From a virus (taxonomy: Duplodnaviria > Caudoviricetes), in IMG/VR virus record IMGVR_UViG_3300024346_000005: a DNA stretch of 64,000 nt; one strand, 5' to 3'. The translations under genes and the position numbers were made by a program. Within the stretch, counting starts at the first letter, position 1; each line of letters begins with the position of its first letter. Below the pieces are notes generated by a model. It searched no databases and was not told the origin of the DNA. It was given only the letters and a program-made list of their open reading frames with translations. This document shows, piece by piece, positions 3,579-63,765 of the stretch.

Positions 3579-4001
3579 ATGAAAAATAATTATGAAGATT
3601 TGGATAAAGCTCTGAACATAGAAAGTAGTATTATTGAGGTAGAAAAGTCTATTACACCAATTGATATTATTCCTACACAGAATAATGATATAAAAAAAGA
3701 TTATGAATATACAAGAGCAAATCTATATTCACTAATTGAGAAAGGTCAGGAAGCCATTAATGGAATTATGGAACTTGCCGGTGATGGTGGAAGTCCAAGA
3801 GCATACGAGGTGGCGGGGCAACTTATTAAGAGTGTGGCGGATACAACTGATAAATTAATAGATCTTCAGAAGAAATTGAAAGATGTTCAGGAGGATAATA
3901 CTAAAATTGCCAATAATGTTACAAATAATGCCGTGTTCGTTGGATCTACTTCGGAGTTGTCAAAATTACTGAAGCAAGGTTTTCTAAATAATAAAGAATA
4001 A
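3579..4001 (+). CDS. gp16: Terminase small subunit gp16
   Basis: DYEYTRANL, SPRAYEVAGQLIK, VFVGSTSEL motifs. Confidence 0.9.
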   Translation: MKNNYEDLDKALNIESSIIEVEKSITPIDIIPTQNNDIKKDYEYTRANLYSLIEKGQEAINGIMELAGDGGSPRAYEVAGQLIKSVADTTDKLIDLQKKLKDVQEDNTKIANNVTNNAVFVGSTSELSKLLKQGFLNNKE

Positions 4002-4013
4002 TGTTTTCCTAAA

Positions 4014-5480
4014 GTGCCTAAATTAAAATCCCACCAGACGGTTGAAAGTATTGCGAAAAAGCATCGTCAGGATATTTCTTTTGTAAGAAATCAACTTAAG
4101 ATGGGTATTGCTATTGAAAAGGAGCATACTAAAGATAAGGATCTTGCTGCTGATATTGCTCTTCAACATCTTGACGAGTTTCCAGATTATTACACTAAGT
4201 TGAAAAAGATGGAGTCTGATGCTAGAAAAGAGCATAAAAACTTTAAGGATGTGAAAGAGAGTCTTCGTGATTGGTTTGGTAAATCTGAATCAATCGGTAA
4301 AAAAAGAAAACCTGGTTGGGTTGAAGTAGTCTCCGGAGAACCTTGTGCCCGTGAAGAAGGCGAAGAGGATGAAACACCCAAGTGTGTTTCTTCAGATAAA
4401 AGAGCAAGTATGACTAAATCTGAAAGAATATCTGCTCAAAGAAGAAAAAGTGCCGCAGACCCAAATCAACCAGAAAAATCGGGTGCTGCTAAACCAACTT
4501 ATGTTTCTACCGATAAACCAAAAAAGAAAATGAACGAAGAATCAGATGTTAAAGGTAAAGGAAGCGGCACAAAAGATGCTTGTTATACTAAAGTAAAGTC
4601 AAGATATTCTGTCTGGCCTTCAGCATATGCTTCCGGAGCACTTGTAAAATGCCGCAAGGTTGGTGCTGCTAATTGGGGAAATAAATCAGAATCAATAAAT
4701 TTATCATCAAAAGATTCTATTTCAGAAGAAATGGGTATGAGATATTGCCCCAAATGTGAAAAAGATGAGACTAGAGATGTATGCAAATATGGTCCCAAGT
4801 ACTGGGATATGTTTTCACTACCTTCCAGATTATCCCCAAATCAGATGAAGTTTAGTATTGCTCAGGTTCATCCTACTAATGAGTCTAAGGAACCAGACCA
4901 CGAATATTCTATGGCAAGGTCTGAACTCTCTACAATTATTTCTGCTGCAAAAAGACTCCGTGGCAAATTGAATGGTGAGGGTAATATTGAGGCATGGGTT
5001 CAATCAAAAATTACAAAGGCAGCAGATTATATTGATGCTGCTGCTGACTACCTAGATAGTGGAGAACACGATGTTAAAGAGGCGTGTTGGAAAGGTTATA
5101 AGAAAAAGGGTATGAAGACGATGTTTGGTAAAAAATATCCAAACTGCGTTAAGGTTAAGGAATCTATTGATGTATATTCCAATTGGAGGGAAGATTTTGG
5201 TCTGAATGAAGCATCCGCTGCCTGGCAAAGAAAAGCAGGTAAAAATCCTGAGGGTGGTTTAAACGCAGCAGGAGTTGCATCTTATAGAAAAGAAAATCCA
5301 GGTTCAAAATTGCAAACTGCCGTTACTACTAAACCATCAAAATTAAAACCCGGTTCTAAGGATGCAAAACGCAGAAAATCATTCTGTGCTCGTATGAGTG
5401 GAATGCCTGGACCTGCGAAAGATGAAAAAGGTCGTCCAACAAGAAAGACATTATCCTTAAGAAAGTGGAACTGTAACTAA
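4014..5480 (+). CDS. Multi-module basic protein (488 aa); N-terminal module resembles DUF5661
   Basis: GTG start; MGIAIEKEH..IALQHLDEFPDYYTKL at the N-terminus, followed by several short Cys-pair modules. Confidence 0.7.
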   Translation: MPKLKSHQTVESIAKKHRQDISFVRNQLKMGIAIEKEHTKDKDLAADIALQHLDEFPDYYTKLKKMESDARKEHKNFKDVKESLRDWFGKSESIGKKRKPGWVEVVSGEPCAREEGEEDETPKCVSSDKRASMTKSERISAQRRKSAADPNQPEKSGAAKPTYVSTDKPKKKMNEESDVKGKGSGTKDACYTKVKSRYSVWPSAYASGALVKCRKVGAANWGNKSESINLSSKDSISEEMGMRYCPKCEKDETRDVCKYGPKYWDMFSLPSRLSPNQMKFSIAQVHPTNESKEPDHEYSMARSELSTIISAAKRLRGKLNGEGNIEAWVQSKITKAADYIDAAADYLDSGEHDVKEACWKGYKKKGMKTMFGKKYPNCVKVKESIDVYSNWREDFGLNEASAAWQRKAGKNPEGGLNAAGVASYRKENPGSKLQTAVTTKPSKLKPGSKDAKRRKSFCARMSGMPGPAKDEKGRPTRKTLSLRKWNCN

Positions 5481-5481
5481 A

Positions 5482-5796
5482 ATGAAATCCTTCAATCAGT
5501 TTATTTCAGAAAGTGTTAATATTGCCGGAAATTTCAACGGCAATCTTTATATGAATGGTTCAGAATCTCAATCAGAACCCGTTGGAGAGTCTTTTACCGC
5601 AGATATAGTTTGGGAAGGTAAAATGTATAGATTAGAAGTTGAAGGCAAGATGTTAAACAAAAATGAACTTGCAGAGCAACTTCAGGGAGAATATCCCGGA
5701 GCAATTGTACATAACATTTACCCTCAAACAACAAATTCTTTAAAAATTAAGAACTCACAAAGATATCAACCCGAAAGACTAACTTCGACTGATTAA
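5482..5796 (+). CDS. Hypothetical protein with capsid-targeting-like leader (MKSFNQFISES)
   Basis: 104-aa ORF tightly coupled to both neighbours. Confidence 0.7.
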   Translation: MKSFNQFISESVNIAGNFNGNLYMNGSESQSEPVGESFTADIVWEGKMYRLEVEGKMLNKNELAEQLQGEYPGAIVHNIYPQTTNSLKIKNSQRYQPERLTSTD

Positions 5797-7078: not shown

Positions 7079-9784
7079 ATGGATATTCAAGACATTCAAC
7101 TAAAGATAGGTGATGCATATCTCTCTAATCCAAATCTAAAGAGAGCAAATACTCCAATACAATTTACCGAAGAACAAATTATTGAGTTCTTAACTTGTAA
7201 GGAAGACCCCGTTTATTTTGCCAAGAAATATATCAAGATTGTTAATGTTGATGATGGTCTTGTTAAGTTTAATATGTGGCCCTTTCAAGAGAGATTGGTC
7301 AGCAACTTTCATAAGAACAGATTTAACATAGCAAAGATGCCACGCCAGGTTGGTAAGGCATTAGCATTAGATACTCCAATACCAACACCTGAAGGATGGA
7401 CGACGATTGGGGATATTGAAGTTGGGGATCAAATACTTTCTCCCGATGGAAATTCAGTTTCTGTAACATTTAAAACAGAAACTATGATTAATCACCAGTG
7501 CTACAAAATATTTTTTGATAATGGAGAAGAAATTGTCGCTGATGCAGATCATTTGTGGGAAGTAAATAGTTCTTATTGGAGAACTGGAAAAAAAGTTATC
7601 AATACTGATGAAATATATTCAAGATACTTAAAGAAAACTAACAATAAAAGAGGTAAAGGTGTAGAAGGGTCACTTTATATTGACTTATCTAAAGCAATTA
7701 ATGGGAAAAATCAAAATTTGCCTATAGATCCATATCTTCTTGGTGTTTGGTTGGGTGATGGATATTCTGCAGACGGGAGAATAATAGCACATAAAGATGA
7801 TTATGAATTTTATAAAACAAAACTAGATATTGAACACGAAAGAGAAGATAATAATTGTATTCGTTTTAAGTGTAGGGATTTAAGAAAAAAATTAAAAGAA
7901 AATAATTTATTAAAGAATAAACACATTCCACAAATATATCTTCGCACATCCATAGAACAAAGAATGGAATTATTGCGAGGATTGATGGATACTGACGGTT
8001 CAATTACAAAAAATCAATCATTTGAATTTTACCAAAAGAATTATGAATTTATTCTTCAAGTTGTTGAACTTCTATCTTCTTTAGGTATAAAATCCAGAGT
8101 AAGTAGAAGGTTAATAAATCAGTGTTGGTATCATACTGTTCGTTTTCCCAGTAAGGAAAATATTTTCAATCTTCCAAGAAAGTCCGAATTAATAAATTTT
8201 GGTGGAAAGGGAAGACCTCAAAATAAAAGACATTATATACAAAAAATAGAAAAGGTCGATAGTGTCCCAGTTGCGTGTATTCAAGTAGATAGTGATGACC
8301 ATCTGTTTTTATGTGGAAGAACATTTATTCCCACACATAATACAACAACGGTAGTATCATACTTATTACATTATATTGTTTTTAATGACAACGTAAATGT
8401 GGGTATTCTGGCAAACAAAGCATCAACATCAAGAGAAATCTTAAGTAGACTTCAATTATCTTATGAGAATCTTCCAAAATGGATGCAACAGGGTATTGTT
8501 TCCTGGAATAAAGGTTCATTAGAATTGGAAAATGGGTCAAAAATTATTGCGGCATCAACGTCTGCTTCTGCCGTTCGAGGAATGTCATTCAACATTATTT
8601 TCTTGGACGAATTTGCGTTTGTTCCAAATCATATTGCCGACGATTTCTTCGCATCAGTATATCCCACAATTTCATCTGGTAAGTCCACCAAGGTTATTGT
8701 AGTATCCACACCCAAAGGTATGAATCATTTCTACCGTATGTGGCACGATGCAGAGCGTGGTAAGAACTCATTTGTTGCCACAGAGGTCCACTGGTCTGAA
8801 GTGCCCGGTAGAGATGAGGAATGGAAGGCACAGACGATTGCCAATACTAGTGAAGAGCAGTTTAGGGCAGAGCACCTTTGTGAGTTTCTGGGGTCGGTAG
8901 GAACACTCATCAATCCAAGCAAACTGAAAATATTAGTCTATGATGACCCAATAAAAAGAAGTAAAGGTCTTGATGTTTATGAAAATCCAATAGAAGACCA
9001 CAGTTATTTAATTACGGTTGATGTTGCTCGTGGAATGGGTAATGATTATTCGGCATTTGTTGTTTTTGATATTACGGAGTTTCCTTACAGAGTTGTGGCA
9101 AAATATAAAAATAATGAGATTAGACCGATGCTATTTCCAAGTATTATTAATGAGGTGGCAAGAGGATATGATAATGCCTGGTTACTTATAGAAGTAAATG
9201 ATATTGGAGATCAGGTTGCTAATATTCTTCACTACGATTTAGAATATGATAATATCCTAATGTGCTCTATGAGAGGTAGGGCAGGGCAATTAGTTGGGTC
9301 TGGATTTAGTGGTAAAAAATCTCAACTTGGAGTTAGAACAACTGCAGCAGTTAAAAAATTAGGATGTTCAAACTTAAAATTACTTATTGAGGATGATAAA
9401 TTATTTGTGAATGACTATGATATTATTAGTGAACTTACAACATTTGCCCAAAGACATAATTCATTTGAAGCGGAAGAAGGTTGTAATGATGATTTGGTAA
9501 TGTGCCTTGTAATTTTTGCCTGGTTAGTCGCTCAGGAATATTTCAAAGAAATGACTAATAATGATATTCGTAAAAGAATATATGAAGAACAAAAGAATCA
9601 AATAGACCAAGATATGTCTCCGTTTGGATTTATTTCAGATGGATTGGAAGATATGGAGGTATTTGTAGAACAAGAAACTGGAGACAGGTGGATGTTTGCC
9701 ACTTCAGAAAACGGAATACAGACACAAGATATTTGGAATGTTGATGAGTACGGAGATGTGTCAAATGAGTGGGATTACAGATAA
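7079..9784 (+). CDS. gp17: Terminase large subunit gp17 (901-aa precursor; about 573 aa after intein splicing)
   Basis: Walker A RQVGK/TTT split by the intein; Walker B IIFLDEFAF; nuclease motif ITVDVARG; DDLVM near C-term. Confidence 0.95.
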   Translation: MDIQDIQLKIGDAYLSNPNLKRANTPIQFTEEQIIEFLTCKEDPVYFAKKYIKIVNVDDGLVKFNMWPFQERLVSNFHKNRFNIAKMPRQVGKALALDTPIPTPEGWTTIGDIEVGDQILSPDGNSVSVTFKTETMINHQCYKIFFDNGEEIVADADHLWEVNSSYWRTGKKVINTDEIYSRYLKKTNNKRGKGVEGSLYIDLSKAINGKNQNLPIDPYLLGVWLGDGYSADGRIIAHKDDYEFYKTKLDIEHEREDNNCIRFKCRDLRKKLKENNLLKNKHIPQIYLRTSIEQRMELLRGLMDTDGSITKNQSFEFYQKNYEFILQVVELLSSLGIKSRVSRRLINQCWYHTVRFPSKENIFNLPRKSELINFGGKGRPQNKRHYIQKIEKVDSVPVACIQVDSDDHLFLCGRTFIPTHNTTTVVSYLLHYIVFNDNVNVGILANKASTSREILSRLQLSYENLPKWMQQGIVSWNKGSLELENGSKIIAASTSASAVRGMSFNIIFLDEFAFVPNHIADDFFASVYPTISSGKSTKVIVVSTPKGMNHFYRMWHDAERGKNSFVATEVHWSEVPGRDEEWKAQTIANTSEEQFRAEHLCEFLGSVGTLINPSKLKILVYDDPIKRSKGLDVYENPIEDHSYLITVDVARGMGNDYSAFVVFDITEFPYRVVAKYKNNEIRPMLFPSIINEVARGYDNAWLLIEVNDIGDQVANILHYDLEYDNILMCSMRGRAGQLVGSGFSGKKSQLGVRTTAAVKKLGCSNLKLLIEDDKLFVNDYDIISELTTFAQRHNSFEAEEGCNDDLVMCLVIFAWLVAQEYFKEMTNNDIRKRIYEEQKNQIDQDMSPFGFISDGLEDMEVFVEQETGDRWMFATSENGIQTQDIWNVDEYGDVSNEWDYR
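7358..8341 (+). mobile_element. Intein (328 aa) with LAGLIDADG homing endonuclease domain, Ala1 class-3 type
   Basis: Starts ALALDTPIPTPEGW, ends FIPTHN before Thr+1; block B ADADHLW; LAGLIDADG blocks PYLLGVWLGDG and LLRGLMDTDG; removal restores RQVGKTTT. Confidence 0.93.
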
Positions 9785-15043: not shown

Positions 15044-15694
15044 ATGAAACTCATCACAGAAGAAGTCTCACACGTAGAGTTTATTACCGAAAAAGTAGGT
15101 AAAGAAACTAAAACCTTTATTCAAGGAGTTTTCCTTCAGGGAGACATTTGTAACCGTAACGGTAGAATGTATCCGATGGAAACTCTTGCGAAAGAAGTGG
15201 CAAGATATAATGAAGCATTCGTTTGTAAAGGTCGTGCTCTTGGAGAACTCGGACATCCAGATGGTCCTACGGTAAATCTTGACCGTGTTTCTCATAAGAT
15301 TGTTTCCTTAGAACAAAAGGGATGCAATTTTATTGGTAAGGCACAACTTCTTGGAACTCCTATGGGTAAGATTGCCGAATCTCTTATTAAAGAAGGCGTT
15401 TGTCTTGGAGTTTCTTCTCGTGGTGTTGGATCACTCCAAATGACTAATGAAGGTCATAAAATTGTTGGTAAAGACTTTATGCTCGCAACTGCTGCTGATA
15501 TTGTGGCAGATCCTTCTGCTCCCGATGCTTTTGTACAGGGAATATTTGAAGGGAAGGAATGGATTTGGGAAGGAGGAATCCTTCGTGAAAGACTTGCAGA
15601 GCAAACAAAGAAGAGAATTAATACTCTTGTAGATGAAAAAACTCTACAAGAGCATAAAGTTCAATTGTTTCAAGATTTCTTAGGAAATCTATAA
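15044..15694 (+). CDS. gp21: Prohead core protease gp21
   Basis: NRNGRMYP, ALGELGHP, GVSSRGVGSL, DIVADPSAPDA. Confidence 0.95.
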   Translation: MKLITEEVSHVEFITEKVGKETKTFIQGVFLQGDICNRNGRMYPMETLAKEVARYNEAFVCKGRALGELGHPDGPTVNLDRVSHKIVSLEQKGCNFIGKAQLLGTPMGKIAESLIKEGVCLGVSSRGVGSLQMTNEGHKIVGKDFMLATAADIVADPSAPDAFVQGIFEGKEWIWEGGILRERLAEQTKKRINTLVDEKTLQEHKVQLFQDFLGNL

Positions 15695-18328: not shown

Positions 18329-18354
18329 GGTTATAAACCTAATGTGATTACTAG

Positions 18355-18362
18355 TATAAATA
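18355..18362 (+). promoter_or_regulatory. Late promoter abutting the gp23 terminator, upstream of an endonuclease gene
   Basis: Exact TATAAATA. Confidence 0.65.
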
Positions 18363-18388
18363 AGAGAGTCTTACGACTCTCTTTTTTT
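18363..18388 (+). terminator. Rho-independent terminator after gp23
   Basis: AGAGAGTC-ttac-GACTCTCT followed by a T run. Confidence 0.8.
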
Positions 18389-19099
18389 ATGCAACATTTT
18401 ATATACAAGACCACACATATTTCTGGAAAATATTATATCGGAAGGCACTCAACTAAAAATATAAATGATGGATATTTGGGCAGTGGAAGATGGGTGAAAT
18501 CAATAAAAGAAAAATCAAATCTTTCGAGAGAAATACTTGAATATTGTAATAATGATAAAGAACTAATAGAAAAAGAAACTCTTTTAATAGAACAAAATAT
18601 ATCAAATTCTTTATGTATGAACTGGAACGATAAAGGTGTCGGTTGGTCGTCAAGGTTTAATCCATCCAAACTAAATCCAAGTAGATTTGCTGGAGATAAA
18701 AATCCAATGAAAAATGAAGAAGTTAGAAATAAAGTAAGTGAGTCTGTAAAAAAAGGATATGCCGAAGGAAGAATTCATCCCCTACTAGGCAAAAAACATA
18801 CTGAAGAATCTAAAGAAAAAAATAGACAAAAGCATCTTGGTAAAAAACTTTCACCAGAAACTATTGAAAAAATAAGAAATGCCAATATAGGAAAAGAACA
18901 AACAGACTACCAAAAGCAAAAAGCAAGAGAGGCAAATGAAAAAACTTGGAAAATAATCACACCAGAGGGAGAAGAAGTCATTATAACAAATCTACGCCAA
19001 TATTCCTTAGAAAGAGGTTTAGACCCAGGAAATATGATGCATGTGGCAAGAGGAAGGCAAAAGCAACATAAGGGTTATAAAGTATCTAAAGTAACTTAA
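18389..19099 (+). CDS. Free-standing GIY-YIG (Seg-like) homing endonuclease with NUMOD3-like repeats
   Basis: FIYKTT..GKYYIGRHST..DGYLGSG; GKKHTEESKEK / GKKLSPETIEKIR repeats; start placed at the ATG after the terminator. Confidence 0.8.
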   Translation: MQHFIYKTTHISGKYYIGRHSTKNINDGYLGSGRWVKSIKEKSNLSREILEYCNNDKELIEKETLLIEQNISNSLCMNWNDKGVGWSSRFNPSKLNPSRFAGDKNPMKNEEVRNKVSESVKKGYAEGRIHPLLGKKHTEESKEKNRQKHLGKKLSPETIEKIRNANIGKEQTDYQKQKAREANEKTWKIITPEGEEVIITNLRQYSLERGLDPGNMMHVARGRQKQHKGYKVSKVT

Positions 19100-20189: not shown

Positions 20190-20747
20190 ATGGCATATAT
20201 TTACAAAATAACCAATTTAAAAAATAATAAAATTTACATTGGTTTTACAATAAATGAAATTGAAGTAAGGTTAAGGAATCATATAAGAGCATCAAGACAA
20301 AATAAAGAAAGACATACATATCTCCATTCGGCAATTAGAAAGTATGGTGAAAAATTTTTTATAGTTGAAGAAATAGAGAGTGGTGATGATAAAAAACTTT
20401 TAAATGAAAGAGAAAAATATTGGATTGATTATTTTAAACCAGATTATAACCTAACAAAAGGTGGAGATGGTTGTTTAGGTTATAAGCATTTGGAGGGGAC
20501 AAAGTTAAAAATAACTGGGTGCCCAAAAGGAGCAAAACAAACTTTGAGTGAAGAACAAAGAGATATTCTTTCCAATAGAGCAAAAATGATGAATGAGAAG
20601 AAGGGAAAGGGATATAAATTAAATGTTAGTGAAGAAGAGAGACAAAGAAGGAGAGAAAATATGATTAGAATTAATAAAGAAAGAAAAGGTCAAAATACAA
20701 CTTTAAATAAAAAAAGAGATGATAAGGGTCGGTTTTTATCGAAATAA
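20190..20747 (+). CDS. Free-standing GIY-YIG homing endonuclease
   Basis: AYIYKITNLKNNKIYIGFT, EREKYWI, YNLTKGGDG; inserted between uvsY and uvsW. Confidence 0.85.
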   Translation: MAYIYKITNLKNNKIYIGFTINEIEVRLRNHIRASRQNKERHTYLHSAIRKYGEKFFIVEEIESGDDKKLLNEREKYWIDYFKPDYNLTKGGDGCLGYKHLEGTKLKITGCPKGAKQTLSEEQRDILSNRAKMMNEKKGKGYKLNVSEEERQRRRENMIRINKERKGQNTTLNKKRDDKGRFLSK

Positions 20748-23323: not shown

Positions 23324-24046
23324 ATGAATATTCTTTATAAAATAACATATCTTCCTCATCTAAAAAATCAAACTCCCCCTTATTATTATGTTGGATCGAA
23401 ATACAACTATGGTAAAAAATATTTCGGATCTCCGTCATCCAAACAAAAAGATTGGTATAGTGGAGACCTTACTATTTGTAAATGGTGGAAAGAAAAAATA
23501 AAAAATAATATAGATGATTTTTATTTTGAAATAATATCAGAATATGGTGAAATATCTCCTAAGCAATTAGTTGAGGAGGAGAAAAAAATTCATATGGAAT
23601 TAGATGTTAAAAATAGTAAAGAATATTTTAATAAATCTGTAGCAACTTCTGGGTGGGTATCTGTTCCAAGAACAGATAATACAAAGAAAAAAATAAGTGA
23701 GATTACCAAAAATTATTGGGATCAAAATAGTCAAAAAGCATTAGAAAGAAGGAAAGAATTGAGTGAAAGAAATAAAAAAATAAAATCTAAAGAATTAAAA
23801 GAAAAATGGAAAAATCCAACTGATAAAATGTTGGATAATTATGAAAGATTTGTCAATATGGCAAAAAACCAAAAAAGGGGGAAGGATAAATCTAAAAGAA
23901 AACAAAGGACCACCCAAAAAGTTTTTTGTTGTGGTATAATATACGAAGATGCCGTTGAAGCAAGTAAAGTCGTCGGCATAAATCCAGTCAATATTCGTCG
24001 CAGATGTAGATTAGAACAATATACCGATTGGTATTATTTGGAATAA
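23324..24046 (+). CDS. Putative divergent GIY-YIG homing endonuclease with C-terminal NUMOD1/HTH-like domain
   Basis: ILYKITY...YYYVGSK, KYFGS; C-term KVFCCGIIYEDAVEASKVVGINPVNIRRRC; inserted between gp55 and gp47. Confidence 0.65.
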   Translation: MNILYKITYLPHLKNQTPPYYYVGSKYNYGKKYFGSPSSKQKDWYSGDLTICKWWKEKIKNNIDDFYFEIISEYGEISPKQLVEEEKKIHMELDVKNSKEYFNKSVATSGWVSVPRTDNTKKKISEITKNYWDQNSQKALERRKELSERNKKIKSKELKEKWKNPTDKMLDNYERFVNMAKNQKRGKDKSKRKQRTTQKVFCCGIIYEDAVEASKVVGINPVNIRRRCRLEQYTDWYYLE

Positions 24047-27231: not shown

Positions 27232-27870
27232 ATGAGAGAACAAGAAGTTAGAAATCTTTGGGAAGCATATCTGGAAGTTTGTGAAAATCAGCAACTTGAT
27301 GAAGTTTCTGATGAACTTGTAGGTAGAGCTGTAAATAAACGTATTGCTGCTACTGGTGCCGCAAATGATACGGAAATGAAAGACCGCACTCCTGAAAATA
27401 TGAGAGCTTCTGTGAGAGCTGGCGAAAAGGAAGCAAGTATGAAGACTGCTGCCGCTAAAAGAAGGAAAAGAATGAATAAAGAAGAAGTTGACCTCTTTGA
27501 CACCATTCTTGAGCACCTAGTTGCCGAAGGTTATGCCGATACAAATGAAGCAGCACTTGCTATTATGGCAAATATGAGTGAAGAGTGGATTGGTAGTATT
27601 GTTGAGGCAGTAGACCCAGACTATACGGGTCCATCTCAAGATCCGTTATCTAGAGCAAGCAGAGCAATTGGAAATGCTGTAAAGTTTGCTACGGGACAAC
27701 AAGCTGCGGAAGTAAGAGCAAAACAAAAAGGTGTTCCCGGAAATGTTGTTGTTAAGCAGTCTGGTCCCTTTTCGACAAAAAATGTTCCAACTAAGGGATC
27801 TTTTATTTCTGATACTGAAATGAGAAGGAGAGGTCAAAGTACACAACCAATGGGACCCATAGGAAAATAA
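27232..27870 (+). CDS. EAY/EGY-module paralog family member 1 (212 aa)
   Basis: N-term NLWEAY; module DLFDTILEHLVAEGYADTNEAALAIMANMSEEWIGSIVE at 27490-27606. Confidence 0.75.
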   Translation: MREQEVRNLWEAYLEVCENQQLDEVSDELVGRAVNKRIAATGAANDTEMKDRTPENMRASVRAGEKEASMKTAAAKRRKRMNKEEVDLFDTILEHLVAEGYADTNEAALAIMANMSEEWIGSIVEAVDPDYTGPSQDPLSRASRAIGNAVKFATGQQAAEVRAKQKGVPGNVVVKQSGPFSTKNVPTKGSFISDTEMRRRGQSTQPMGPIGK

Positions 27871-45406: not shown

Positions 45407-45655
45407 ATGAAAGACCTCCAAGCATTCCTTGATAATATTATTGATATTTTTACCACTAAAAAATCATTACCTAAAGATGTAATGAATGATTTTATCAAGT
45501 ATTTTTACTTCACTCTTGATAAGGAAATCAAATCAAATAAGTCGGAAGTATTAAAGAATAAATATATTAAGATTAGAAAAAATGGATTAAACTATATTGT
45601 TGCTAATAAAGAAGCAATAATGGCGAATATTCGTAAGAAAAAATTAAGTAAGTAA
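45407..45655 (+). CDS. Small basic hypothetical protein
   Basis: 82-aa ORF coupled to neighbours. Confidence 0.55.
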   Translation: MKDLQAFLDNIIDIFTTKKSLPKDVMNDFIKYFYFTLDKEIKSNKSEVLKNKYIKIRKNGLNYIVANKEAIMANIRKKKLSK

Positions 45656-47006: not shown

Positions 47007-48434
47007 ATGAAAAATCATATTGCCGAAGATCTGCCAGCAAGAAAATTTGCCCCTGCTGCTGCCGATTCTGGTCCTACTGACAAGAACGATAAAAAGGAAA
47101 GTTCTGGAAAGTCTCCAGAGAAAAAGGCAAAGCAGGCAGTGTATGATATTCGTTATAGAGCAAGAAGAGAAGATATTCCACTTCCTCAGGCATTTTCTCA
47201 ATATATGCAAAATAGCAGTATGGGAGGTGAGGAAAGAAAGATGGTCAAGGCAAAACTATTCGGTAAAGAAGGTGGTGGTATGAAGGCAGAAGACTTTAAT
47301 CCTATTTTTAAGGATGCGGCATCTGATAATGTTGCCAAAGCACTTTTTAAAGTTTTTGTGGAAGGAACGGAACAAGAACAGCAATCAATTTCTCTAACTT
47401 ATCTTGAAGAATTAGACAGTCCAGAGCACAGAAAGTATAAGGTAAGAGTTACTGATAAGAATACTAAAAGGTCTTATGTGAGAATGGCAACCCGTGAGAA
47501 AATCAATCAACTTCGTGCCAATCCAAATATTGAATCAGTTGAGATGACCGAATATGGCGAACCTTATGAGGGTGAGAGAAAGAAAGGTTCTCAGACCGCA
47601 AGAGTTGCTGCAGGTAAAGGATTAGACCCCGTAGGTAAAGAAGACGGTGATGTTGATAATGATGGGGATAAAGATAAGTCTGATAAGTATCTAATGAAGA
47701 GGCGTGGTGCGATTGGTAATGCCATCGCAACTCGTAAAGAAGAGTTCATTCACGAAGCAGAAACCGAAGATTCTAACACCCAAACACTTGATTATATAAA
47801 GGGAAAAGTTAAGAATAAAGTAACTATTTCTCCTATTCAGGGTGGAAATGAAAAAGTTAGAATAGTGGCACATAATGAACTTGAAGGTGAATTGATTGCT
47901 GAAACTGGGTACTCAAAGTTTCTTAAAAAGGTTCATTCTCTTCAAGAAAAAGCAGTAAGTCAAAATCAGCAACAACTTGCTGCTATGGCTATTGAATATC
48001 TTGATGGAAATATGCCTGATGCGAGTGACGCTGTAAAACAAATGGCAAAAATGGGAAGAAAAGAACTCAAAAAATTTGCCAAAACCAAGCACAAAGGTCT
48101 TCCAGAAAAAGTAAAGGAAGAAATGGATTGTGGTTCTGATGATAAGAAAAAAAAGAATGGTGAAGAGGAAGACCCCCGTTCTTCGAAGACAAAGGATAAC
48201 CTTAGAAGAAATTATTTAAGGGCGATGGGTCTTAAGATGTCTTATGAACCAGAAGGTGAGGTATTGGAGGATTATATGAGAGTAAATTCTGATGGTAGCA
48301 GAGAAAGAGTTGCAGGTGACCCCCCAAAGGCAAAACTAAAAAGAAAACCACTAGGTCATACTCCCGAACAACAAAGGCAAATGAATAAACAACCTAAAAC
48401 AGACTATAGAGCAAGACCTGGAGAATCCGATTAA
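47007..48434 (+). CDS. Multi-module charged protein (475 aa) with DxDNDGD motif and a DUF3008-like module
   Basis: DGDVDNDGDKDKSD; KAVSQNQQQ..KELKKFAKTKHKGLPEKV. Confidence 0.7.
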   Translation: MKNHIAEDLPARKFAPAAADSGPTDKNDKKESSGKSPEKKAKQAVYDIRYRARREDIPLPQAFSQYMQNSSMGGEERKMVKAKLFGKEGGGMKAEDFNPIFKDAASDNVAKALFKVFVEGTEQEQQSISLTYLEELDSPEHRKYKVRVTDKNTKRSYVRMATREKINQLRANPNIESVEMTEYGEPYEGERKKGSQTARVAAGKGLDPVGKEDGDVDNDGDKDKSDKYLMKRRGAIGNAIATRKEEFIHEAETEDSNTQTLDYIKGKVKNKVTISPIQGGNEKVRIVAHNELEGELIAETGYSKFLKKVHSLQEKAVSQNQQQLAAMAIEYLDGNMPDASDAVKQMAKMGRKELKKFAKTKHKGLPEKVKEEMDCGSDDKKKKNGEEEDPRSSKTKDNLRRNYLRAMGLKMSYEPEGEVLEDYMRVNSDGSRERVAGDPPKAKLKRKPLGHTPEQQRQMNKQPKTDYRARPGESD

Positions 48435-55320: not shown

Positions 55321-56517
55321 ATGTCTAGACTTACTGGTACTGATGCATATGGTTTGATGGAGGCATATCAAGCAGTATATGCTCCTCAAGAACTCACCGA
55401 AGAGCAAGTTTGGGAAGAAGTTGAGAACTGGGTCAATTCACTTCTTGAAGAAGGTTATGACCTGAGTGATTATACCTGGGAGGAGATGTATGAAGAGTAT
55501 TTGGAAGAAATTTATGGAACTAATCTGGGGGGAAATACTAAAACTAAACCTAATAAGTTAGATACTGCTGTAGGTAATGCCATTAAATCTATAACAAGTT
55601 CCGGTGCAGACGCCACACCAAGAACTACAGGTATTTACGGACAACCAACAAGGAAACCTGCATCCCCAACTTTCCAAAATACTGGTGGATTTGGTAGATA
55701 TGCTCCCCCATCCACACAAGTAAAAACTCCTGCTCCTGCCGCTCCTGCCAATAGAACTCCTGGACTTACTCCTGTTCCCATCACTAGAACTCCTGCTCCT
55801 GCCACAAAACCAGCAGCACCAGCACCCGCTGCCGCCAGACCTTCTGGCGGTGCTCCTAGACCTTCTGCCGGTGCTCCCGCTAAAGTATCACCAACACCCA
55901 CAAAACCAGCAGGACCTGCAATGGGTAAACTTGGGGGCACTACCTTTGAGAGAAGGACTCCAACATCTGCCGAATTGAAGGCAGCACAATCGGCAAGAGC
56001 ATCGGGAGCATCTCCAGAGAAAGCACTTCAGGCAGCAAAGTCTGCTGGTGGAGCACTTCAACAAACTGCTGCTAAGGTAATGGAAAAACCACCAGCATTT
56101 AGTCCAACTCCTGCCGCTGCAAAAACAACCCCAACTCCATCCACACCAAAGGCACCTACACTTGGTTCCAAAAAACCCGGCAGTATGGTTTCTCATTTTG
56201 ACCCATTTGATGTAATCAAAGGTCATCTTCTTGATGAAGGTTATGCCGATACTGAAGAATCGGCACTTGCTATTATGGCAAATATGAGTGAAGAGTGGAG
56301 AGAGAGTATTTTAAATGAGGGTGACAACTACGATAAGAATCGCCAAAGAGCAGCGAAAAGAGCAGCAGAAAGAAATGCTGCCAGAGATAGAGGACAAACT
56401 GGAAATGTCCCTGGAGTAGGTTATGTAACACCAAGAAGAGAAAGAGAAACTTATAGAGATGCTGCAGGCACTGAAAGGCACACTTCTGGTGCTAAAATGC
56501 CAAAAAAAGAAGGTTGA
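55321..56517 (+). CDS. EAY/EGY-module paralog family member 2 (398 aa, Pro/Ala/Thr/Lys-rich core)
   Basis: LMEAYQAVYAPQELTEEQVWEEVENW..; module DPFDVIKGHLLDEGY..MSEEWRESILNE at 56200-56319. Confidence 0.78.
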   Translation: MSRLTGTDAYGLMEAYQAVYAPQELTEEQVWEEVENWVNSLLEEGYDLSDYTWEEMYEEYLEEIYGTNLGGNTKTKPNKLDTAVGNAIKSITSSGADATPRTTGIYGQPTRKPASPTFQNTGGFGRYAPPSTQVKTPAPAAPANRTPGLTPVPITRTPAPATKPAAPAPAAARPSGGAPRPSAGAPAKVSPTPTKPAGPAMGKLGGTTFERRTPTSAELKAAQSARASGASPEKALQAAKSAGGALQQTAAKVMEKPPAFSPTPAAAKTTPTPSTPKAPTLGSKKPGSMVSHFDPFDVIKGHLLDEGYADTEESALAIMANMSEEWRESILNEGDNYDKNRQRAAKRAAERNAARDRGQTGNVPGVGYVTPRRERETYRDAAGTERHTSGAKMPKKEG

Positions 56518-57863: not shown

Positions 57864-57885
57864 ATTGAAAATAGTGTTTATTCAT

Positions 57886-58866
57886 ATGTCAAAAGAAATT
57901 GTAGACTTGATGGAGGCATATCAAGCAGTATATGCTCCCCAAGAATTGACAGAAGAGCAAGTATGGGAAGAAGTTGAGAACTGGGTTAATTCACTTTTAG
58001 AAGAAGGTTATGATCTAAGTGATTATACTTGGGAAGAGATGTATGAGAATTATGTAACTGAGAATTGGGCAGCTGTAGGTAAAGCATTATTAGGTTATGG
58101 GGCAAGAGGATTAAATGTAGCAAAGGTTGGAGCAAAACCTGTATTAAAAAATGTAGTAACTAAGGGTGGAAAGTATGGAGCTATTGGTCTTGGTGCATTA
58201 ACAGCAGATGAATTACTTACAAGAGGAGCTGGAAGAACAGCAGTAGGTAAAGGTTTGGAGCAAACAAGAAAACTCGGACCAGCACTTAGAGGAGAACCAG
58301 CAACACCATCTGCAAAAGTAGAACCCTCATCTTCAGAGAAACCTGGAGAATCCACAGGGAAAGTAGTGAACGCTGCCGGTGGTAAAGGAGGAACAGTTAC
58401 TTCCGGAACAAAATATGCAGCAACTCTTGGTGGAAAAAAGGGTAGTGTAACTTATGATGATACTGGTAAAAAGACATTTACTACCGACTCTTATGGATAT
58501 GATGCCTATGACCTTGTGCTTGAGTATCTCCTCTCACAAGGGCACACAGACACCGTAGAAGAGGCAAATTATGTAATGTTGGTAATGGATGCCGAAACTA
58601 TTGGAACTATTGTTGAGACAGCGGCAGACCAATCTGATAAGCAAATTGATAAAGGTGTAAAGACGACTTATAAAGCACAAAATGTTCTTGATAATCAACA
58701 TCAAGGTAGAAGTAAAGGATTGAATAAACTTCCAAGAGGCGAAAGAGAAGAGAAGGCAAAAAGAATGGGAGGTCGTCTAAAAAGTCGTAGAGACGATTTA
58801 TTTGGAGAACGCAATAAGCGTGAAGATTCAAAAAGAGAACAACTGAAGAAAATGTTAGGTTTATAA
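57886..58866 (+). CDS. EAY/EGY-module paralog family member 3 (326 aa)
   Basis: 47-aa N-terminal block identical to member 2; divergent module DAYDLVLEYLLSQGH..TIVE at 58501-58617. Confidence 0.78.
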   Translation: MSKEIVDLMEAYQAVYAPQELTEEQVWEEVENWVNSLLEEGYDLSDYTWEEMYENYVTENWAAVGKALLGYGARGLNVAKVGAKPVLKNVVTKGGKYGAIGLGALTADELLTRGAGRTAVGKGLEQTRKLGPALRGEPATPSAKVEPSSSEKPGESTGKVVNAAGGKGGTVTSGTKYAATLGGKKGSVTYDDTGKKTFTTDSYGYDAYDLVLEYLLSQGHTDTVEEANYVMLVMDAETIGTIVETAADQSDKQIDKGVKTTYKAQNVLDNQHQGRSKGLNKLPRGEREEKAKRMGGRLKSRRDDLFGERNKREDSKREQLKKMLGL

Positions 58867-62835: not shown

Positions 62836-63765
62836 ATGGACGCACAAGAACTTCGCAATCTTCAAGAAGCATATATGGAAGTTTATGAACTTGATGAAGA
62901 TTGGAAACCTGTAAATGTGCCAAGAGTAAAAACTCGTATGGGAAATCTTGAAGGGAGATTGTCTTCAGTTTCTAATGATAGATTTTCCAGCAATACCCCA
63001 GAATATGCCAGATATCAAAGAACCGCAAATGTTGTCTCACAATCAACTGAAAATCCAAATAAACCTTTCCAAAAACCAACATTTGATCCAGGTGGACTGA
63101 AAATAAAACCAGGAGGCCGAGGTGTCACATTTTCTCCAGAAAGAAATTCACAATGGAAACCATTTTCATCTAGATTACCTACCAAAACTCCTGCTACAGT
63201 AACAAAACCATCTACACCATCATCCACAAAACCAAACCCTCGTAGTATTTCTGGTTCTAGTGCTCCTAGACCGGGAAGAGGATCTACATCAAATTGGATG
63301 ACAGATAGAATGGGTGAATTTACATCTGCGTTAAATAGATTATCAGATCCAAGAAAACCAAATTCAACCACAAAACCACAAGTAAAACCAACCAAAAGTT
63401 CAAGAGGTGGTGGTTCATCAGCACAAGGCGTTGGTTCTCCATCAGGAACTGGTAGATATCAAGTTGGTGGGGCGCAAGGACATGGTATTTCTGGAATAAA
63501 AATGGCCGATAGTTATGACCTCTACGACATCATTCTCTCACACCTTCTTGATGAGGGTTATGCCGAAACACCAGAAGCAGCAGAATCTATTATGGTGAAT
63601 ATGAGTGAAGAGTGGAGAGAGAGTATTTGTGAGGCAGAGATTGAACCCCCAAAAGAAAGAGTTGGTGCTTTGACGAATATTGATATTCCAATGTCCGAAA
63701 GAGAAGCAGCAAGACAAAGAACACTTGCAAAAGCAAAAGCAAAAAGAGAAAAAAACAAAAATTGA
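62836..63765 (+). CDS. EAY/EGY-module paralog family member 4 (309 aa, Pro/Ser/Thr/Lys-rich core)
   Basis: N-term NLQEAY; module DLYDIILSHLLDEGY..MSEEWRESICE at 63517-63633. Confidence 0.78.
   Translation: MDAQELRNLQEAYMEVYELDEDWKPVNVPRVKTRMGNLEGRLSSVSNDRFSSNTPEYARYQRTANVVSQSTENPNKPFQKPTFDPGGLKIKPGGRGVTFSPERNSQWKPFSSRLPTKTPATVTKPSTPSSTKPNPRSISGSSAPRPGRGSTSNWMTDRMGEFTSALNRLSDPRKPNSTTKPQVKPTKSSRGGGSSAQGVGSPSGTGRYQVGGAQGHGISGIKMADSYDLYDIILSHLLDEGYAETPEAAESIMVNMSEEWRESICEAEIEPPKERVGALTNIDIPMSEREAARQRTLAKAKAKREKNKN

Follow-up and report, generated by a model that had tools for sequence, protein, structure and literature searches.

Internal head proteins and composite proteins of phages

The cleavage rule of the T4 prohead protease gp21, after L/I-x-E, and the biology of the leaders have been described (PMC9026906). 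The T4 proteins IPI, IPII, IPIII and Alt are basic head cargo with sites of this type; each gene of an internal protein gives one mature product behind an N-terminal leader, and lysines of these proteins contact the packaged DNA (PMC3012670). In phiKZ and SPN3US, a gp21 homologue likewise cleaves many head proteins behind Glu, mainly to remove propeptides (PMC9026906). Unrelated domains shuffled within one polypeptide are known from the polyvalent proteins, which contain conflict enzymes and embedded peptidases and which their authors likened to viral polyproteins (Iyer et al., 2017, PMC5512222). Closest to the gene studied here is the "structural protein" family T4-GC119, which has the same modules in the same place by gp16/gp17 but is described as hypothetical or structural only (Sullivan et al., 2010, PMC3037559). 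Genes of this family are 276 to 2985 nt long, and S-PM2 has none (PMC3037559). The S-SM1 protein was found in virions with 13 counts, whereas that of Syn9 was undetected (PMC3037559, Table S8). In the papers that could be searched, we found no description of modular shuffling, processing or function of the DUFs concerned.

The protein examined here, a 488-aa chain from an uncultured freshwater cyanobacterial phage, resembles the T4 internal proteins in having gp21-type sites ahead of the predicted mature parts, basic predicted products and a gp21 encoded in the same genome. It differs in that about seven products are predicted from one gene and that an N-terminal leader is absent; no sequence homology to T4 internal proteins was found. 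In contrast to polyvalent proteins, it consists of mini-domains with head-protease sites and no peptidase of its own, and unlike in phiKZ and SPN3US, the predicted cuts would separate modules which are free-standing elsewhere. We read it as a head-cargo polyprotein which gp21 would cut into basic, DNA-binding products, and give this reading a probability of about 0.62.

Genomic setting and identity of the open reading frame

The window, i.e., the whole stretch of DNA analysed, comprises 64,000 nucleotides of a 128.5-kb virus record (IMGVR_UViG_3300024346_000005), whose genes include psbA and T4-like ones for head, tail and replication. The ORF (4014-5480, GTG start, T4-GC119/phrog_727 family) encodes 99 K+R vs. 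67 D+E and sits between the genes of the small terminase gp16 (3579-4001) and the large terminase gp17 (7079-9784), the latter read from the sequence as having an intein-like insertion. A late-promoter-like CTAAATA (3984-3990), 24 nt upstream of the start, may drive its expression; the TAAATA core also precedes gp15, gp18, gp20, gp22 and gp23. The prohead protease gene gp21 (15044-15694; Peptidase_S77, E 1e-32) retains the motifs GHP70, SSRG124 and DIVADP152, and its product is the presumed processing enzyme. All these features are on the plus strand. As side observations, the large terminase ORF (901 aa) contains an apparent intein, KALALDT...THN/T, with an endonuclease-like region, and three GIY-YIG-like free-standing endonuclease ORFs (18344-19099, 20190-20747, 23324-24046) were recognized by eye among the core genes.

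Among cultured phages, the freshwater Synechococcus phage S-SRM01 matches the ORF most closely (65% identity over 99%), and cultured orthologues, found using tblastn, carry the annotation T4-GC119. In PHROGs, the ORF matches phrog_727 (E 6e-85) and several overlapping unknown families; in Pfam, DUF6321 (aa 409-485, 81.6 bits) and DUF5661 (aa 12-68, 59.7 bits) exceed their gathering cut-offs. Pfam and PHROGs returned unknown-function families only. The ESM Atlas gave matches to these same DUFs and otherwise to viral clusters without a name, and PDB sequence searches with the whole protein and with profiles of modules B, C and G (defined below) gave no match. A gene-calling artefact or read-through was rejected, as the ORF is open in dozens of relatives, and so was a part of the terminase, given the absence of homology and a variable position (in P-SSM4 far from gp16).

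The protein starts with MPKLKSHQTV, and a pattern search found no 10-residue T4 capsid-targeting leader at 4014. Leaders of this kind were detected elsewhere in the window, at the gene starts 5482, 30158, 45655 and 56595. The next gene (5482-5796, plus strand) begins with MKSFNQFISE, alike to MKTYQEFIAE of T4, and continues with a small domain, named I here. The gene at 45655 encodes a cytidylyltransferase/NMNAT-like protein, whose family, T4-GC190, was represented by 25 counts in S-SM1 virions.

Seven modules in one chain

The first-pass annotation had described the protein as a string of short units, and all motifs quoted for it are present in the ORF. Seven modules, all on the plus strand, can be delimited. 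Module A (DUF5661; 4026-4214, aa 5-67) is helical, has no Cys and contains one internal LDE; in the Caulobacter phage Cr30 it stands alone, downstream of a leader-like start. Module B (4260-4505, aa 83-164; W..W..C..PxC with C111/C124) corresponds to the C-terminal half of DUF5872 and is a gene of its own in podophages. One stand-alone B matches positions 49-99 of this Pfam family with 27.3 bits at a gathering cut-off of 27.5. Module C (4572-4679, aa 187-222; PSAYA core, C190/C213), also a separate podophage gene, weakly matches DUF5872 positions 12-44 (E 0.007, 13.7 bits), and the order of the two halves is reversed in the 488-aa protein. Module D (4740-4814, aa 243-267) is mobile within the family and, with its CxxC-x8-C pattern, could bind metal. 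Module E (4896-5054, aa 295-347) is a predicted helical hairpin without Cys, net acidic, and turns up in S-H35 as part of an unrelated gene. The most mobile module is F (5085-5150, aa 358-379; CW..Y...PNC, C358/C378), and the chain ends with G (DUF6321; 5211-5477, aa 400-488; C458/C487), a separate gene in many non-T4 phages.

The predicted products carry net charges of +5 (B and C), +8 (F, as a 27-aa product), +17 (G), +3 (A), +1 (D) and −4 (E). The basic products among these are B, C, F and G. Stabilization by cysteines, as first proposed, applies to five of the seven units: A and E (the HEYSMAR unit) have no Cys, and the YCPKC unit has three. In C the pair is optional, with both cysteines in 48 sequences, neither in 92 and a single one in none, and this strict pairing suggests an optional disulfide, not a metal site. 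In the free particle, paired cysteines would probably be oxidized to disulfides.

A fold was predicted with an alignment for module G, giving three helices at a pLDDT of 90.6. Foldseek found no match of this fold to a solved structure at E ≤ 0.001, the best VIA match had Z 3.5 (rmsd 2.7, 53 aligned), and fold searches with G matched its own family only. The whole-protein fold from a single sequence was uninformative (pLDDT 41.6, pTM 0.22).

Shuffling of modules among relatives

Searching each unit separately, as had been suggested, revealed that relatives have acquired, dropped and rearranged modules (per-unit profiles). The order ABCDEFG of the present ORF becomes HABCFDEG in close relatives, MEKBJCFLIG, with a DUF192 insert, in S-SM2, BECFDIG in S-T4, BFCG in P-SSM2, DBCFG in S-SM1, EKFBCI in S-SCSM2R and K-B-C-F-D-I-G in S-SCSM1, while in P-SSM4 the set is split over two distant genes. 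Among the best 150 matches to G (divergent representatives at 50% identity), 26 architectures were counted. The small domain of 5482-5796 takes part in this exchange: in S-SM2, S-T4, S-B43 and S-SCSM1 it forms part of the polyprotein itself (hhalign 94%, E 9e-8). S-SCSM1 carries it twice, within the polyprotein and in the leader-bearing next gene, ORF30 (L355:9216-9536), which has no annotation as a virion protein.

Modular shuffling of the T4-GC119 family, with B, C and G also as genes of their own, is real and widespread. The shuffled order and the stand-alone genes strongly support modular independence, and the opposite pattern, units always in a fixed order and in one fold, is not seen.

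Candidate gp21 sites in the linkers

The junctions originally read as hydrophobic-x-Glu sites end in Glu 82, 175, 238, 290, 356, 383 and 399, with codon ends from 4259 to 5210 exactly as first given. On the plus strand, the candidate sites are VKE/S (E82, 4251-4259), MNE/E (E175, 4530-4538), ISE/E (E238, 4719-4727), TNE/S (E290, 4875-4883), VKE/A (E356, 5073-5081), and VKE/S (E383, codon end 5162) and LNE/A (E399), which together with the 16-aa acidic spacer between them (YSNWRED motif) span 5154-5210. Six of the seven agree with the description; TNE/S, with the off-consensus Thr at P3, is the weakest and corresponds to ANE/S or FPE/S in relatives.

The raw number of motifs was rejected as evidence. 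Phi-x-Glu (Phi = L/I/V/M/F) occurs seven times in 488 aa, i.e., 1.4 per 100 aa, which is below the background of 2.5 in the genome's non-virion proteins. Position is more informative, as Phi stands at P3 of 6/14 linker Glu vs. 1/24 module-core Glu (Fisher p = 0.006). The DUF5661 unit contains an additional motif, LDE55, and LPE occurs inside 30 distant E modules, so that the presence of the motif does not equal a boundary. In 21 non-redundant orthologues, which are not phylogenetically independent, Phi-x-Glu falls within the final six positions of 68 of 110 linkers, compared to 19.5 in within-linker shuffles (maximum 32 in 2000 shuffles). P3 is the most enriched position of the linkers (34% vs. 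18% base); the bias recurs in the scaffold protein gp22 (42% vs. 24%), whereas non-virion (replication) proteins show 32% vs. 29%.

A second, independent set of 149-150 proteins carrying G, with counts not free of shared ancestry, gave a corresponding picture. The motif directly precedes G in 136 of 149 divergent proteins (shuffles 45.7, maximum 63), and in 126 of these the Glu is placed 4-5 residues ahead of the first Trp of G, although the sequence upstream of G is otherwise unrelated across the 150-protein set. Modules E (28/40), F (24/44) and B (7/10) are preceded by the motif like G, while the signal before C and D is less clear in an 8-residue window. Within G cores, one motif was found among 435 Glu. 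Scarcity of Glu in the cores was rejected as a proof of avoidance, as stand-alone C and G are Glu-poor, too.

In the phage's own gp23 and gp21, LYE/S and ITE/E stand where N-terminal cleavage sites would be expected. Of the earlier proposal of a gp21-processed polyprotein, the gp21-type punctuation is strongly supported; the cleavage itself is deduced from the sequence, and it is likely that gp21 processes the product of this ORF. In some relatives, the slot of the acidic spacer before G is occupied by a leader-like KTFxxFMxE, and the spacer may therefore be an internal targeting tag.

Split genes as a natural comparison

In T7-like and other small phages (podo- and pelagiphages), B, C and G are separate genes of 55-100 aa, which form clusters in the neighbourhood of genes for scaffold, capsid, portal or terminase proteins. 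A search for proteomics of podophage particles with the stand-alone versions gave no result. In CRP-7, G, C and B follow each other ahead of the terminase, and in P-SCSP2, C, B and G are flanked by the scaffold and major capsid genes; genes for C, B and G are also present in HTVC027P, and genes for C and B in C72C1. Most of 240 IMG/VR loci chosen by one stand-alone module have one or two of the others within 2.5 kb (median 54-99 aa, 26-31% K+R). The starts of the stand-alone genes fall near the predicted cut points of the chain. Of ten genomes tested, gp21 was found in each of the five with a fused chain and in none of the five with split genes, a small sample confounded with lineage. Further, a W-F-x-E core motif is found in 114/127 stand-alone B but 2/33 fused B, as expected if phages with gp21 had purged an internal site, possibly in a single event. 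Since phages without gp21 keep the three modules as separate genes, the chain is probably loaded into the head and cut there.

The units need not be independent effectors, as first supposed: genes for B, C and G keep together in a cluster, as would suit a common task in the head. Some of these clusters (loci L095, L097, L100, L188, L215 etc.) include more tiny K/R-rich genes of the KHSKHH and MPGYH/MPGHY families, which may belong to the same kit.

Proposed fate of the products in the head

Presence in virions is known from orthologues, namely those of S-SM1 and S-SCSM1, the latter annotated "virion protein" after virion MS. We propose that the polyprotein is expressed late and built into the prohead core, and that during head maturation gp21 would cut after the hydrophobic-x-Glu linkers, as their statistics suggest. 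The predicted products are of about 82, 93, 63, 52, 66, 27, 16 and 89 aa. Acidic spacers would be discarded and at least five small folded products (27-93 aa) would stay with the genome, where the basic products of B, C, F and G would most likely attach to the packaged DNA and compensate part of its charge. Fusion would then provide one shared route for many tiny proteins into a gp21-type head, and phages without gp21 would encode the same proteins singly. A DNA-binding role is probable on grounds of charge and gene context: the products are small, very basic, encoded among head genes and conserved even where the hosts of the phages are unrelated, and in T4 internal proteins lysines are in contact with packaged DNA (PMC3012670).

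The same packaging and cutting might instead deliver ejected effectors against host targets (for example, a nuclease or another defence protein), for which IPI* of T4 is a precedent (PMC3012670). The compact, confidently predicted fold of G with its invariant non-basic residues, the invariant aromatic and PSAY motifs of B and C, the entry of foreign domains such as DUF192 into the chain, and enzymes encoded by other leader-bearing genes (NMNAT-like at 45655) would all suit such a role. However, the high conservation of the modules among phages infecting Synechococcus, Prochlorococcus, Pelagibacter, Roseobacter, Microcystis and Planktothrix is easier to reconcile with a ligand that does not depend on the host, such as DNA, than with the target of an arms race; T4 internal proteins, in contrast, are poorly conserved, and fold searches revealed no similarity of G to known anti-defence folds. 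We consider this main rival reading less likely but plausible, and it does not exclude DNA binding.

Less probable still is an accessory prohead-core protein like gp67/gp68, cut for destruction with most pieces leaving the head, or a chain remaining uncut as beads on a string. The same P3 bias in gp22, the internal sites of the helical modules A and E, the modest spectral counts in S-SM1 and the undetected Syn9 orthologue are in line with it. On the other hand, the cores of B, C, D, F and G are kept free of sites (in G, 1 of 435 Glu), phages without gp21 encode the stand-alone versions as complete genes, and scaffold proteins are acidic whereas the modules are basic. Disulfide-stabilized cement or decoration proteins on the outside of the capsid, suggested by the paired cysteines and by genes adjoining the major capsid gene in podophages, are very improbable, as gp21 acts within the head and the capsid of P-SCSP1u has no cement protein (PMC10575957), while its close relative P-SCSP1c has a stand-alone G beside the capsid gene.

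A Gly-Gly linker group and further candidates

In a third group, of large unclassified phages, B and C are embedded in long ORFs (L345:2840-8310, L351:5644-8241, L352:6001-8241, L353:5497-8370) containing x-x-Gly-Gly 6-14 times. The motif, (M/Y/F/K/L)-x-x-G-G, flanks these and other modules, and the ORFs adjoin virion structural genes; this looks like another grammar for polyproteins. Searches of the contigs with Gly-Gly linkers, which are mostly incomplete, found neither an S77 nor a C48 protease. There is about an even chance that aquatic tailed phages share a kit of small basic, genome-associated virion proteins in three maturation-dependent grammars. These would be separate genes (no head protease), a Phi-x-Glu chain (gp21) and a Gly-Gly chain (other large phages), and the kit would comprise DUF6321, the two DUF5872 halves and others.

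Within the window, 47007-48434 encodes a basic protein of modular build, in which DUF3008 is joined by a D-x-D-x-D-G repeat resembling a small gene of the P-SCSP2 cluster (gp20); it may be another cargo polyprotein. Four paralogues (27232-27870, 55321-56517, 57865-58866, 62836-63765) have acidic EGY/SEEW motifs around basic low-complexity stretches and raised Phi-x-Glu ratios of 1.6-2.5.

Implications for phage heads

New in this analysis are the comparison of split and fused genes, the co-occurrence with gp21, the second linker grammar and the link to virion data. For module G alone, 3,172 relatives were counted at the level of 50% clusters, and the module is present in 537 GenBank phage records, including most T4-like cyanophages and many pelagiphages. 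If our reading holds, three DUF families could be assigned to the DNA within the head, tailed phages would gain a widespread multi-product polyprotein, and the linker grammar would predict head cargo from sequence. Should the kit with three grammars prove true as well, genuine polyproteins would be a frequent means, reached by convergence, of loading phage heads.
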